64,000 nt of DNA from Moniliella sp. 'wahieum' (GCA_003971905.1 RSEE01000002.1:744001-808000), one strand, 5' to 3'; shown: positions 606 to 62,699, counted from the stretch's first letter. Numbers and translations are program-made. The notes: a model not told the origin generated them from the letters alone.

Positions 606-1199
606 ACTTGATGCGCGTCTCCGTCGGCCTACGTTTCCGACTGAAGGTGCCGGCTTGCTGTGCCCCCCTCTGAAGAATGGGTTACCTGGGACCGGCAAGT
701 AGTCTCTGCCCTCGGTGCTGTCGCCATAGCATCCTTTTATCGATTATCGATCAGATCCTTCTGTTGGTGGTCGCAAGACACAGCGAACACTATGAATACG
801 CCTGTGCCAGCTTCCCACACTTTTCATGTTGGGGTTGTAGTCTCTGTTGTATACTTTTGTTGCTCCTATAGCCTTTTGGCCAAACCCACTCGATGCAGTC
901 AAACTCGACCGAGGTGCGCAGCAAAACCGCCGTGTGAGCGCCAAGTAGTGTTTTCTTTGATGGAGTACAGAGAGCAAGCAGACAATGGGCATCAAGTAAC
1001 GTATCGGAGTCCTGTACTCTTATTAGTAGAAGCGGCTGATGCAGATGGGGGCGAAGACACCTTCAATCGATTGTCGATGAATGATGCATGATGGTTGTCG
1101 ATGATCGATGACGTTGCATTACACACGTTACACGCTGGAAGCTGAATTGATACACGTAACGTAACGCATTAAACGTTAAACGTTAACGTCAATCCAGCG

Positions 1200-2157
1200 T
1201 TACCGGTTACCAGTTACCAATGGCGCCCTATGCTCCGGCGCCATCACTACGCACTTGGGCAGACGCACTGACATGCAGGTCACACTAGGATACCAAGAAA
1301 GCTTTGGGTCAGCATCAAGACGAGAGAGAGAGCACACACCAGAATTGAACAAACGTACCATCCCTCGAGTTTTTCAAAATCTCCAATGTCGGCAGTGTGC
1401 ACGGTCAGACCACGAGACTCCCACTTTCTTGGTTTCAGGCGCATCAGCCGACATAACCACCTCGTTGGGACCCACACCACACGACGACCGCCACACCATG
1501 CTCCTCGGGAACAGGAACGTAGTCGAGGCCCGCCTCGCGGAACACCTTCTTGGCCTCCTCATCAACGATCGGGTCAAACCCAATAATGGTGCCGTCGGGC
1601 AAAGCTGTCACAGCACTCTTGAGATGCAATGCCTTGGTGATGGGGACAGCGATGACGCGGTAGCCGCGAGGCTCGAGGAGCGCTTTCAGTCCATCCCGCC
1701 CAGCTTGGTTCGTCCGCGCCGATACACCGACAAAGACAAGCTTGCGGTCCTCTAGCTTAGGATGTCGCCTCCATCCAAAGTAGCCGGTGGGGAAAGGCGT
1801 TCGAAGGCCAAGCCAAACTGGTTTGTTATGCTTGGCCAGCAGCCGAGGAGCCAGCCACCTCGGGTTGGCGTGGGGACAGAGCCGGGACTGCACTGCATCA
1901 ACAAGCCCTTGTCCTTGCCAGCGAGGGCATGGAAAAGAAAACGAGCTGATCTTCAATGAACACGCCATCGGGAGCGTCGGTTGGAGGACATACTCCAGCT
2001 TCCAGCCGAGGTTGGCAAAGACTTGAGCATAGCCCTTCCATTGCTGGAGCGAACCCTCGGGGCTGACAGCATCGCGTTGGTCCGCAATGTGGGACACTTG
2101 CCCCTCGGCCAGTTTTTCGGACGGTTGCCGTAGTAAAAGGACGTTTGCGGAAGACAT
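1200..2157 (-). CDS. NG,NG-dimethylarginine dimethylaminohydrolase (dimethylargininase, amidinotransferase family), frameshifted in assembly
   Basis: Motifs LLRQPSEKLAEGQVSHI, VFVGVSARTNQAG, ALHLKSAVTALPDGT, VPEEHG, and FEKLEG-C-VTCMSVRL after removing intron 1285-1358 (GTACGT...CTGAC...TAG). In-frame stop at 1200-1202. Confidence 0.85.
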
Positions 2158-2639
2158 GGCAGGCAAATAGCAGGTGGTGGTGTGTGTCAGAATGTGAGAA
2201 GGAGATGGACGATCGATGAGCTATCTCCGTGGCACCGCTACAAGCGCGAAGATTAAACATGGACTAAGGCCTGGTTGCAACTGCTTGCACGGCCCCGCCG
2301 CCTGAAGGCCTCAGGCCTCTGGCCCACTCTGTAGATCAGTGCCAGCGCTCATTTTGCAATGTCACGTGAATCTTATCTGTGGGCCGTGCATGCCAGAAAT
2401 CCCAGCTGGGCTGCTGTGAAATAGTGAAACGAGCGGCGGAGATAAAATGAAATGTGAAAATGTGAAACAGCAACCGGAGGACGAGAGTGTGGAGACAACA
2501 GGGCCAGCGATGCCCCATCGAGATCCCACTCTGGCGGGATTTTGGTAGCTCTAGCGCTTAGCGCTTATCGTTGAACGCGCTTGACTTGGCCACCACAGCA
2601 TTCTTGCTTCTGCGCAACCACCCTCACTTTGTCTCCACG

Positions 2640-59140: not shown

Positions 59141-59544
59141 GACGAAGAGGTGGAGGATGAGGTGGTGGGGAGACGGTAAGAAAGGCGCCCACTTTAAGAG
59201 CTAAAAATGCGGTTGCGGACTTGGTCAGTACGCGAGTCGGGAGACTGCCCGAGTGCTGGCCGTGGATGGATGGATGATGCAAGCATGCATGATGGAAGGA
59301 AAAAATTCCGGAGGACGTCGGATTTTTTTTTGCTGTCTGGCCCGAAGGCTTACTTACGCCATAGAATAAACCACCTTTTGGTTCTGGCGCACGGACATCC
59401 ACCGACCTGGTGGTACACGCCGCCACTATTATCCCCCCTCCCCGCCATCCAGAAAGCTCCAGTGGGGACTGCATCGCATCAGTGCCATATATATCGCCTC
59501 GCTGTGAAGGTGCCTCTACCCATTGTTCTGCGCATGGCATTGCT

Positions 59545-62104
59545 TTAGTTACGCGCATGTTTGTGCGCAGACTGAATCTCCCATCGGCGCCGCTTCCACG
59601 CTGTGCGGCTCGCAACGTAGTTGGTCTGAGCCTCCGACCTGATTTCCTCCTCATCGGAAGCACAGCGTTGGTGCTCGTAGCGAAAGGGATGAAATAGGGG
59701 TGCCCTTCGAGGCGATGGTGTTCCAAGATGTCAAGATGGAAGGGATGCTGGGACCAGACAATGGGAAGCTAGCCCCGGCCAAGCGAGTAGGCTGGGCTGG
59801 AGCAACCGTAGCTACGACTGCACTGGTCCTAGTGCTAGTCGGTCTGGCACAGGCTCAGGCTCGGTCACCCCCCAATCCATCTCTTCGTCCATCTCCATCT
59901 CATCGGCCAGTGCAGCAAAAGGACACTCTCCTCACCGCCACCCTCCCCTTTGTCAGGAACCGACACGTGGGGTCGAACATGTTTTTGAGCACCCCCAACT
60001 CATAGTGGGTTTGGAAGTCATCATTTTTTAGCAGCTGGTTCTGCTGACGGTGACAATGGTGCTGCCGGAGGGAGCCGGCGACGGGACCGAAGGTGGCTTG
60101 GTGGCCGGCACAGCCTCCTGTTCAGGGAATCCGAGGCCGGAGGGGGTGATGCGACGTCCTGCGGCGGCGGCGGCGAGGAGAATGCGGCTCCTCTGCCTTG
60201 GATGGGGGCGGAGTTGGTGACTTGGCCTGATGACTGGGAGGTGCAGAACCGATGGGATGGCAGCAGTCGGCCGGAGCCAATGGGGGAACAGAAGAGGAGT
60301 AGGAGTAAGTTCACGGCGGGTTGAGCGGGTAAGGAGGCCGCGCTGGCAGAAGCAAGTCCCAAGAAGTAGTGCACGCCTCGACGGTGCTGTACAGGGACCG
60401 CGCAACGGGAACAGGAAGAGAGGGCGCGTTTAGGGCAACTGGTGCAGGGGCGACAACCGAGTCTTGGGTCGAAAGAGTAGGCTTGGGCGCAGACACGATA
60501 GGCTTGGGTACAGAGGAGGCGCCCGAGCTAGGCGAACTGTCAGAGATGGGGCTATTCGAATCCGACTCCGAATCCGACTCCGACTCCGACTCCGAATCTG
60601 ACTCCGACTCCGACTCCGTTTCACTGGAGGAAGAGCTTGAATCAGAGCTTGACTCAGACGAGCCCGACACCGAGCTCGAAGACACGGAAGAAGCATTGGA
60701 GGGGATAACAGTATTCGTCTGAACCTCGTGGGACGGCGCTTTGGACTCTGTCGCCCACCATGTCCCACTCGACTTGGCGGTCGGCTTGTCAAAGAGAGCA
60801 TCATCATCAGCGCCATTTTTATCCCCTTCTGTTTTCGACTCGGTCGACCACCAAGCGCCAGCAGAGGATGCAACGGGCTTGTCGAACAAATCTTCATCCT
60901 CCGATCCCTCAGCAGCTTCAGCAGAGGGGAGAGGCACGTTGCTAGCGTTCGTCGCGCTTTTGCCGAACAAGCGGGCCAAGACAGTCCGAGAAACGTCCAC
61001 ATCGACCGATTGGTCGACATGCTCTTGCTCATTATAACCATCTGAGAACTCATCTTCTTCAGCAGGGTCATAGACAGAACGTTGCCAAGAACCCTTTACA
61101 GGTTCCAATTCAGATTCGTCTTGGCTTGACGGGTCAGAAGACGACGAATTGTGATCACTCGTCTCTTTCTTCTCTTCCTCTTCTGAAGTATCCATAGAAT
61201 CGTCTTGTGCCTCATCCCCTTCTGAATCGGACGTCGACATCGATTCTGACCCATCTGCCTCTACCGAAGGCTCTGGAGACTTGCGAGACAGAGGCTCCTG
61301 GATTGGAGGCGGTGGAGGATTCCCATTCAAAGCACGCCAGTGAACAGAAGTGGGAATCTGCTCCTCTTGCAATATTTGACCTTGCAAATCGCGCAACGTC
61401 CATCGCACGGATGACGGCGGCTCCTCTGATTCGGAATCAGCCTCGCACACCCATACCAAGTCGTGAGGTAAGGCGGGTGTGTCTGATTCCAACAAGGATC
61501 CAGATAGATGCTCACCTGAATACCGAGTCGGGTCGATGGTCACAAGCCTAGCACGCCTTCGGCTCGATTTGTGCACTTTGGGGACAGGAGCGGTCGCATT
61601 GGGTTTGACGCCCTTTCTTGGATCTAGCTTGGTGGGAGGGGGGATGGGCTTGGCAGGCCGCATGACCAAGGGACGCACGAGATGCCCGCCAGCGGTCTTC
61701 TTCCATCCCCATTCGAGATGCTCGGGAGTGACTGGCTCGTGGATGGTCGGGCCTTCGAACGCTTTGGAGCGGTTTTTGCGGTGTTTCTTCTTGGGAGCAT
61801 TTTCGGCTTGCCGCTCCGCTTCCAGGCGGGCACGCCAGTCAGGAACGGCATCCCCAATGCGAAGCTTAGACCCCTTCCACGTAGTTCCTCCTAGTGTCAT
61901 GCGAACTTGGGTCACCTTGTCGTCAAGCGCCTCGCCAGCGGTAACGCTAACGAACGCAAAGCCAGCCGCCGAGGCGGAGAGAGAGCCAGGGACAGCGCGC
62001 AGGCCAAAACGCTCGATGCGGGCAACTAGTTGCTCGGCTCTTTGCTGCACATCCTCCTCCCCGCCCTGGCCGAGTCCAGAGATGTGGAGCCTGCGGGAAG
62101 CCAT
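59545..62104 (-). CDS. N-terminal RRM plus long acidic/Ser-rich region; Nop8/NOL8-like nucleolar-type protein
   Basis: MASRRLHISGL..GFAFVSV..LGGTTWKGSKLRIGDAVPDW, GWKKTAGGHLVRPLVMRP, a 597-aa ORF at 60311-62104, then shifted pieces ELGVLKNMFDP and EEEIR..AWKRRR..ARN* ending near 59545. Confidence 0.6.
60557..60617. repeat. Hexamer coding microsatellite (GACTCC/GAATCC)n encoding (ES/DS)n
   Basis: About 10 units inside the RRM gene, read on the minus strand as ESESESDSESESESDSESDS. Confidence 0.9.
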
Positions 62105-62699
62105 TCACGTGAGATGGGACGGCAGCGGCGGTGCCGATGGTACTGGCGAGAGGCACATGCACCTGCCCGCGACGTTTGGGGAGGGGCGCCAAAAAAAAAG
62201 GACGAGGGCGGGTGGTACAGCTTGCACCGATCGCCAGGCTCAGTATGTTCAACGTTCAATAGTTCAGTTTGGATGGCATACCACGTGCCACGTGACATGC
62301 ATCATGTCCATCATGCGTCGCCCAGCAAAGAGAATCCTACCAGTCGGGCCCAAGAAAGAAAACTCAACAGGAAAAGGTGGTGGGTGTGCGCGCCGACGCG
62401 CCAAGAGGTGTGTCGGGACGCTCCGCTTGCTCTCTAGTATATCCCCCTCTCCACGCTTCAAGCTCGCTCTCCTAGTCATGTCGACATTGAAGAGTTATTT
62501 GATGTGACCCTACTGCCGCTCCAGCGCCCTGGGCCCGGCCTATGTAGTCGTCGAGTCTGCTGAACGATCGAAACGACGGAAAAACCTGGCACCCTCCTTG
62601 GCACATAACAACGAACTGCACAAGGTCTCCGCGCCACTACCATCATGGGACTAACTCTATCGATGAGGGAAATGGTGCGGTATTAAACGTTTCCCCCTC

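Follow-up and report, generated by a model that had tools for sequence, protein, structure and literature searches.

The gaps between genes in a 64 kb stretch of DNA from Moniliella sp. 'wahieum' (the window; all coordinates are counted from its start) contain many short heptad arrays, which a preliminary description had read as a repeated triplet TNA on either side of a 4-nt palindrome. We found that this TNA-palindrome-TNA grammar is real and stronger than described, but incomplete: the true unit is a 12-mer tied to its flanks, [TNAxy][y'x'][TNAxy], in which a 5-nt direct repeat encloses the reverse complement of its final two bases. In the reading that we favour tentatively, at a likelihood slightly short of even, the heptads are excision scars of a cut-and-paste element with a 7-bp, TNA-centred target duplication, whose flanks closed into hairpins that were opened 2 nt off the tip, with later slippage. 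On this reading, they would be repair scars and not designed elements.

Counted against 100 dinucleotide-preserving shuffles, a self-complementary 4-mer between two copies of the same TNA occurs 87 times where 2.4 ± 1.5 are expected (z 56), whereas a non-palindromic 4-mer in the same frame occurs 62 times against 40.2. Comparison with other flanks and spacers, which the preliminary description had proposed as a check alongside that with non-palindromic cores, revealed little or no surplus elsewhere: the palindromic 4-mer is found once between ANT flanks (2.3 expected), 19 times between G.C or C.G flanks (12.2) and 88 times between other triplets (47.3), while palindromic spacers of 2, 3 and 5 nt between TNA flanks number 9, 19 and 8 (9.8, 10.5 and 2.8 expected), and none is listed for a 6-nt spacer. 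The 87 10-mers correspond to 62 loci when matches at most 14 nt apart are merged, or to 63 in-register chains. All 26 examples named in the preliminary description carry the exact pattern with the core assigned to them, and its tally of 14 of the 16 possible cores rises to 15, because AATT, thought to be missing, is present at 7200; TATA is indeed absent.

The output of Tandem Repeats Finder shows an unusual surplus of period-7 rows. With two or more copies required, the window has 51 perfect period-7 arrays, compared with 3.5 ± 1.9 (maximum 10) in 200 dinucleotide-preserving shuffles; perfect arrays of period 6 number 50 (13.2 expected) and those of period 8 number 11 (1.0 expected), and the surplus of period 7 over period 6 is notable because longer periods are expected to be rarer. 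Of the 51 period-7 units, 37 can be written as a palindrome of 6 bp with a single added base, where chance predicts 10.8% (binomial 2e-25). The palindrome has the form A....T in 33 of these 37, in line with the earlier rendering as A-xxxx-T hexamers one base apart. The odd base of the 37 units is C in 15, G in 13, T in 5 and A in 4. Among the perfect arrays of the whole window, palindromic units are not in excess at periods 5, 6 and 8. Together, the perfect period-7 arrays cover 887 nt, and array sizes range from 1.7 to 5.6 units. We uphold the earlier point that neither plain microsatellite slippage nor a single transcription-factor motif predicts the pattern.

The 12-mer rule is obeyed by 42 of the 46 isolated TNA-palindrome-TNA sites, in that 2 nt of the flank match on one side or both (14 sites match on the right alone, 17 on the left alone, 6 by 2 nt on one side and 1 nt on the other, and 5 by 2 nt on both), where by our own estimate chance would give such a match at about 13% of isolated sites. 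Taking all sites together, one half of the core repeats the flank beside it in 78 of 87 cases (29 on the left, 26 on the right and 23 on both sides), so that the inverted copy lies contiguous with its source, with no spacer. The exact 12-mer pattern occurs at 101 positions against 0.2 ± 0.5 expected (40 shuffles), and copies with one mismatch number 112 against 9.4. Run lengths peak at 12 nt (24 runs) and 19 nt (5 runs), with one further run of 26 nt, and thus follow 7n+5 rather than multiples of 7.

The two TNA triplets form a direct repeat, in that 87 pairs agree in the middle base and 3 have complementary middle bases; since the flanks are direct and not inverted, the 10-mers are not perfect palindromes. 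When the repeat is extended to TNAxy, 130 pairs are found at a spacing of 7, compared with 9 to 29 at other single-unit spacings except 8 and 9, which are raised to 49 and 42 pairs. The 2-nt filler of the spacing-7 pairs is the reverse complement of xy in 101 of 130 and that of TN in only 4. Variant splits of 6+2 nt (28 vs 2 expected) and 7+2 nt (8 vs 0.5), in which the inverted pair is separated from the following TNA by an additional base or two, are also enriched; inverted copies of 3 or 4 nt are not, except for a 4+3 split that represents the same 7-nt arrays read otherwise. Among 12-mers that resemble the product of a single event, T.A flanks account for 28 (about 0.5 expected), C.G for 3, and A.T and G.C for none (pair counts tallied by hand from the list). 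In the reconstructed empty sites, the only conserved positions are T(-1) and A(+1), and a C/G bias of the middle base merely mirrors the background. Four chains mix different cores in one register, and three of these are two full scars around one common TNA (14813/14822, 20571/20582 and 8478/8494), one scar being built from the left two bases and the other from the right.

To locate the chains relative to genes, we built a gene map from Pfam-supported open reading frames (ORFs) and ORF clusters. Masks based on period-3 power and on codon log-odds (6.8% of the window) were judged unusable for this purpose, and a 110-codon ORF mask was useless, covering 81% of the window because the DNA is GC-rich. 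None of the 63 chains lies inside the Pfam-supported ORFs (11.5 kb) or inside the gene bodies including introns (about 42.6 kb, approximate, from ORF clusters), which bears out the intergenic placement given in the preliminary description. Across the remaining 21.4 kb of gaps the chain density is 2.9 per kb, or about one scar per 340 bp of intergenic DNA. Most chains lie upstream of the next gene, and where the orientation is known, they precede the Forkhead (13471-16040), ENTH (28581-29627), Hobbit (35194-35761) and RhoGEF (56616) genes and the minus strand ORF at 60314-62104 (62249). No Pfam domain was found in the 150 short gap ORFs scanned out of 177.

Folding predictions give the short units no stable structure of their own. 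Four isolated 12-mers with their flanks yielded 0 to -2.3 kcal/mol in three cases and -4.9 kcal/mol in the fourth, with z-scores from -0.7 to +1.7, none better than composition-matched shuffles. Two of the four arrays folded reach a z below -2 (-10.7 and -3.2 kcal/mol), the former being the 5.6-unit array (z -2.3). The preliminary description had offered a structure-read promoter or chromatin element as one explanation; because the isolated 12-mers have no stable fold, and with TNA flanks that are direct and not inverted, such an element is unsupported for the bulk of the sites.

The individual loci discussed below are the following (strand given where assigned).

1082..1219: four-chain cluster with cores TGCA, TCGA, ACGT and CCGG, plus a non-palindromic TTACCAG derivative of the fourth; the mutated unit (TTACCGG to TTACCAG) is copied at 1199-1219
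2552..2567: TAGCGCT x2.3 array, shortly before the start codon (ATG at 2641) of a Mpv17/PMP22-like ORF
6852..8504: scar-rich gap with 14 TNA-palindrome-TNA chains, upstream of a plus strand gene starting near 8819; arrays at 7499-7524 (TCATCGA x3.7), 8037-8056 (ATGATGC x2.9), 8084-8107 (CTTGAAG x3.4) and 8478-8496 (TCTCAGA x2.7)
6942..6965, plus strand: mixed chain TGA-ACGT-TGA-ATAT-TGA-ACGT-TGA
13471..16040: scar-rich gap with 16 chains, upstream of the Forkhead-domain gene (plus strand, Pfam matches 16932-17875)
14813..14840: two scars around one TGA; the left 12-mer TGTGA CA TGTGA (reverse-complement form) overlaps the right 19-mer array TGATG CA TGATG CA TGATG
16002-16040: longest array, TGATCGA x5.6, in the 13471..16040 gap
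19103..20592: gap with 4 chains; arrays at 19140-19163 (GCCTCAG x3.4), 19926-19946 (GATGATC x3) and 19974-19992; period-8 variants at 19331-19362 and 20025-20065
20571-20592: two scars around one TCA
23931..24661: gap with 4 chains, upstream of a plus strand ORF cluster starting near 24685; array 24641-24661 (TCATGCA x3)
28577..29627: ten chains in the gap that precedes the ENTH-domain gene (plus strand, from 29797); cores CATG, TGCA, TCGA, CGCG, CTAG and GCGC
29082..29093, plus strand: isolated elementary 12-mer TGACG CG TGACG
35194..35205, plus strand: isolated 12-mer TGAGC GC TGAGC
35618..35761: three chains, with array 35744-35761 (TGACCGG x2.6), just upstream of a long plus strand ORF cluster with Hobbit/FMP27 matches
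49251..49262, minus strand: isolated 12-mer TGAAC GT TGAAC, found again at 57292 and 62247
56616..56637: TCATGCA x3.1 array, close to the minus strand RhoGEF/CNH gene and upstream of its 5' end

An alignment of 7960-8130 with 14750-14920, from the two scar-rich gaps, showed no homology outside the common array. In the mixed chain at 6942, the ATAT core differs from its ACGT neighbours by transitions on both strands of the CpG, and the chain is therefore most simply explained by decay of one unit type. ATAT cores beside or in place of ACGT occur at 6942-6965, 15030-15076 and 35704-35715 and fit such both-strand transitions, which hints that CpG in these gaps is hypermutable and possibly methylated.

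The excision reading would generate these forms as follows. A cut-and-paste element, or a nuclease derived from one, would make a 7-bp staggered cut centred on T-N-A, so that a target w v T N A x y would become two copies of the 7-mer flanking the element. On excision, each flank would close into a perfect hairpin, and host enzymes would nick the hairpins 2 nt past the tip, so that each duplex would end precisely at the TNA and carry a self-complementary 3' overhang of 4 nt (x y y' x' on the one side and v' w' w v on the opposite side). End joining would span the 4-nt gap using either overhang, and the product, wv-TNA-[xyy'x' or v'w'wv]-TNA-xy, would have gained a net 7 bp and would in both versions contain a 5-nt repeat around a 2-nt inverted copy. 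Because the second TNA then lies in a perfectly symmetric 7-mer, further hits there, or replication slippage, would add identical units and give arrays of length 7n+5, and staggers of 8 or 9 would yield the rarer period-8 and period-9 variants.

The anatomy of the scars agrees with this scheme on several counts. A spacer-less inverted copy of the end bases points to the off-centre nick of a closed hairpin, that is, to P nucleotides, whereas polymerase fold-back would need a loop, and a staggered cut of the target leaves just such a direct repeat beside the inverted copy. The symmetry between scars built from the left and from the right (29 vs 26) follows from the excision scheme, and scars on both sides of one TNA are predicted by a symmetric target. 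That slippage also acts on the arrays can be seen at 1199-1219, where the mutated unit has itself been copied. The preliminary description had invoked a fold-back, template-switch or hairpin-repair process, the hairpin-repair half of which fits the anatomy, as 78 of the 87 cores are spacer-less flank copies between direct repeats. What the scheme adds to the observations, namely the hairpin chemistry, the 7-bp target duplication and the element itself, we infer.

Precedents for its parts have been published. Excision of hAT, Transib, RAG and MULE elements forms hairpins on the flanking DNA, and the hairpin of Muta1 is 43+43 nt long, meaning a perfect one (PMC5499845). Short palindromes of P nucleotides remain after Ac/Ds has excised in Candida, yeast and plants (PMC5873905). 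Basidiomycete DNA transposons with 7-bp target duplications include hAT7 in Pucciniales (rusts) and Kyakuja in Agaricomycotina (PMC12730594), and MULEs prefer genic regions (PMC5225508).

Several points weigh against excision of an element. The 64 kb window contains no structure of terminal inverted repeats with a target-site duplication, no dispersed repeat apart from the arrays themselves, and no transposase domain in the 300 ORFs scanned (150 of the 177 short gap ORFs included); a resident element with a 7-bp TNA-centred duplication and a transposase is thus absent from it. Candida Ac/Ds footprints fall into 28 types in 128 events (PMC5873905) and are far less uniform than the scars here, although part of the uniformity reflects our search for one form, TNAxy repeats at spacings 6, 8 and 9 being also somewhat raised. 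The palindromes left by hAT elements centre on the complement of the adjacent base (PMC5873905), which misfits the 12-mer sequences and makes hAT7 a precedent for the 7-bp length only, not a match. Muta1, when its target duplications are present, excises precisely in more than 90% of events (PMC5499845). Finally, scars as dense as about one per 340 bp of intergenic DNA would imply a very active element or a long history.

Other footprint schemes were rejected on the sequences themselves. P nucleotides from a 3-bp TNA duplication would give TNA-TN'N'A-TNA, a form that is not seen; of the 130 fillers, only 4 match the reverse complement of TN. A footprint built from transposon termini is ruled out by cores that copy the local flank (78 of 87). 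An exact 7-bp duplication of an odd palindrome would give 14-mers, while 12-mers dominate, and retention of both overhangs (+11) would raise TNAxy repeats at spacing 11, which are at baseline.

Known systems resemble the scars in part. Bacterial STRR-like heptamer arrays share the period of 7, the intergenic position and the use of many different units; these are long arrays in prokaryotic spacers, usually in inverted pairs that form long hairpins, and were ruled out, since the host here is a fungus and the arrays reach at most 5.6 units, form no local inverted pairs and have a T.A-centred palindromic unit. The canonical Tc1/mariner footprint, such as TA-CWG-TA of Sleeping Beauty, is likewise a 7-nt odd palindrome made of a duplicated target and a few bases; its target is TA, and its extra bases are constant, being supplied by the transposon ends, whereas those found here copy the local flank and differ at every site. 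The usual hAT target is nTnnnnAn. For hAT elements (Ac/Ds, hAT7), the common ground is 7-bp duplications in basidiomycetes (PMC12730594) and P-nucleotide palindromes in fungal hosts (PMC5873905). Unlike the scars described here, however, the hAT palindrome is of the odd type, with the complement of the element-adjacent base at its centre (PMC5873905), and the bases that flank the repeat are not x and y, as they would have to be in a product of the hAT type. Kyakuja (KDZ) elements also make 7-bp target duplications in basidiomycetes and are reported from Agaricomycotina (PMC12730594); that paper does not mention Ustilaginomycotina.

The closest likeness in mechanism is to the flank-hairpin footprints of MULE, Transib and RAG-like elements and the P nucleotides of V(D)J coding joints, which have in common direct repeats from target duplication and a spacer-less inverted copy at the joint. 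The perfect flanking hairpin is demonstrated for Muta1 and stated for Transib and RAG in PMC5499845. The scars described here differ in their putative 7-bp TNA-centred duplication, of which we found no description, in an inverted copy fixed at 2 nt in 101 of 130 pairs, and in their stacking into arrays. They also form a visible share of promoter DNA with no element in the window, whereas Muta1 mostly excises precisely (PMC5499845).

An endogenous replication or repair error that involves no mobile element could produce the same +7 product, either through a break or stalled fork at T-N-A, a 2-nt template switch and realignment 5 nt back, or through a host nuclease alone. We consider this origin rather unlikely, although it is helped by the lack of a transposon in the 64 kb, by a scar density that we estimate to be of the order expected for a dominant class of indels and not for rare transposon visits, and by the abundance of near-miss copies (112 vs 9.4 with one mismatch), which suggests a long-running process. 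Polymerase fold-back, however, needs a loop of some length in order to copy, which the spacer-less palindromes here do not offer; introns should be hit as well, yet no chain lies in the gene bodies. A fixed-length direct repeat beside an inverted copy is, moreover, the product of a staggered target cut, and we know of no described endogenous pathway that yields the two together.

In a more novel reading, there is no transposon and an endogenous enzyme of this lineage, perhaps a domesticated hairpin-forming transposase, would break T-N-A in open promoter chromatin, with repair writing the palindromic +7 scar. We regard this version as unlikely.

Alternatively, the heptads could be cis-regulatory or chromatin elements under selection, such as palindromic protein sites or nucleosome-excluding tracts, whose form would reflect function and not origin. 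All chains do lie in gaps and mostly upstream of the next gene, one 12-mer recurs in three unrelated gaps (49251, 57292, 62247), and the units include CACGTG (14901, 62281) and ACGCGT (29014, 29082), both known fungal motifs. Against this, the use of 15 of the 16 cores leaves no single motif, and a transcription-factor cluster would share one recognition sequence, where only T.A is conserved here. The 7-bp spacing would set neighbouring sites on different helix faces and make them overlap, the core is tied to its two flanking bases in a manner with no evident protein reading, and the short units have no fold. We judge selection to be improbable as the main cause of the form. It concerns maintenance, though, and may coexist with either origin.

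The recurrent 12-mer, GTTCAACGTTCA at 49251, 57292 and 62247, could mark either a favoured target or a selected site. Period-7 arrays of CACGTG plus one base, with flanks of G.C instead of T.A and built in the same way as the scars, are present at 14901-14914 and 62281-62294, where CACGTG is a classic E-box.

Ordinary microsatellites would require that 7-mers arising by chance slip and that self-complementary units expand better through slipped hairpins. Slippage is real here, as the copied mutant unit at 1199-1219 attests, tandem repeats of other periods also exceed their shuffles, and the longer arrays fold moderately (-10.7 kcal/mol, z -2.3). A slippage microsatellite, however, would have an unconstrained unit and whole multiples of it. 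Instead, 37 of the 51 units are a palindrome plus one base, palindromic units are not favoured at periods 5, 6 and 8, and the commonest object is a 12-mer with a repeat of only 5 nt, which a 7-bp duplication cannot create; the T.A requirement and the 7n+5 boundaries are left unexplained. Slippage as the sole cause is thus contradicted by unit palindromy, run lengths and 12-mer anatomy, and we consider it very improbable. An artefact of assembly, amplification or base calling has nothing found in its favour and is scarcely credible, because an artefact at the level of reads would not respect gene boundaries, whereas the pattern avoids all gene bodies and follows a strict rule tied to the local flanks.

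We next asked how common the pattern is elsewhere, using as a control 734 kb of other, mostly eukaryote-like metagenome contigs found with the PRP4 exon of the window (80 loci, best identity 57%). These contigs contain 51 TNA-palindrome-TNA sites and 525 with a non-palindromic core, and the density of the pattern is 0.07 per kb compared with 1.36 per kb in the window. At about 20 times rarer in the controls, the pattern is a property of the host lineage. In the literature searched, we found no published description that combines a TNA-centred 7-bp scar and a fixed 2-nt inverted copy with heptad stacking and about three promoter loci per kb. Transposon footprints with P nucleotides as such have long been known.

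If the heptads are indeed excision scars, one kind of repair product accounts for a measurable portion of each large promoter of the host. The scars may then be a main source of new promoter sequence in this fungus, and each event makes a new 6-bp palindrome, the type of site bound by dimeric transcription factors. They would further provide an unusually clean, countable record of transposon traffic in promoters, a natural read-out of hairpin opening and joining in the host, and a means of dating promoter turnover. Should there be no such element, the pattern would point to an undescribed, site-preferring break-and-repair process, and if an endogenous enzyme is at work, a programmed-looking mutational process would be the chief origin of both new promoter sequence and palindromic sites for protein binding in these fungi. 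The [TNAxy][y'x'][TNAxy] rule is simple enough to scan any genome.

The window itself is intron-rich eukaryote DNA of about 56% G+C, in which no tRNA and no Rfam family was found. Judged by its protein matches, the host is a deep-branching Ustilaginomycotina fungus. The PRP4-like WD40 exon (62942-63973, minus strand) shares 50-56% identity with numerous basidiomycete proteins and 83-89% with a further set of proteins. An exon of the proteasome alpha subunit shows 63-66% identity to Tilletiaria, Meira, Ceraceosorus, Violaceomyces and Malassezia, among others, while a further protein reaches 95%. Pfam matches identify the following genes.

4239-5277, plus strand: ER-vesicle transporter
16932-17875, plus strand: Forkhead gene
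From 29797, plus strand: ENTH gene
33034-33690, minus strand: proteasome subunit
41977-46555 (matches), plus strand: long Hobbit/FMP27 gene
47894-48406, minus strand: coproporphyrinogen oxidase
51034-54762, minus strand: RhoGEF/CNH gene
57665-58710, minus strand: SHMT
62703-64000, minus strand: PRP4

Two further long ORFs, 37813-38988 (391 aa) and 60314-62104 (597 aa), match no Pfam family, and the 391-aa ORF has no match at near length among 5.8 billion proteins; both look like lineage-specific coding sequence. The 597-aa minus strand ORF contains (CGACTC)n x10.3 at 60557-60618. Five tandem copies of the 30-nt unit ACCCACCTGGTCTCAACCGCACCTCTCGCC (85% matches) lie at 9025-9186 in a plus strand ORF with a strong period-3 signal and probably represent a 10-residue protein repeat. 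The same long plus strand ORF cluster carries G-rich 18- and 36-nt repeats of the GGTGG/GGAGG type at 10106-10217, which probably encode a Gly-rich low-complexity region. In intergenic DNA, a 14-nt unit, GTCCCAATAAATGC, is repeated 3.9 times at 19599-19655; this unit, which differs in type from the TNA scars, includes words that resemble CCAAT and AATAAA. Low-complexity tracts that are long, C-rich and CCCCTT-like occupy 1-51 and 16230-16488, and related C-rich or G-rich words recur at 47419-47486 and 56231-56331.

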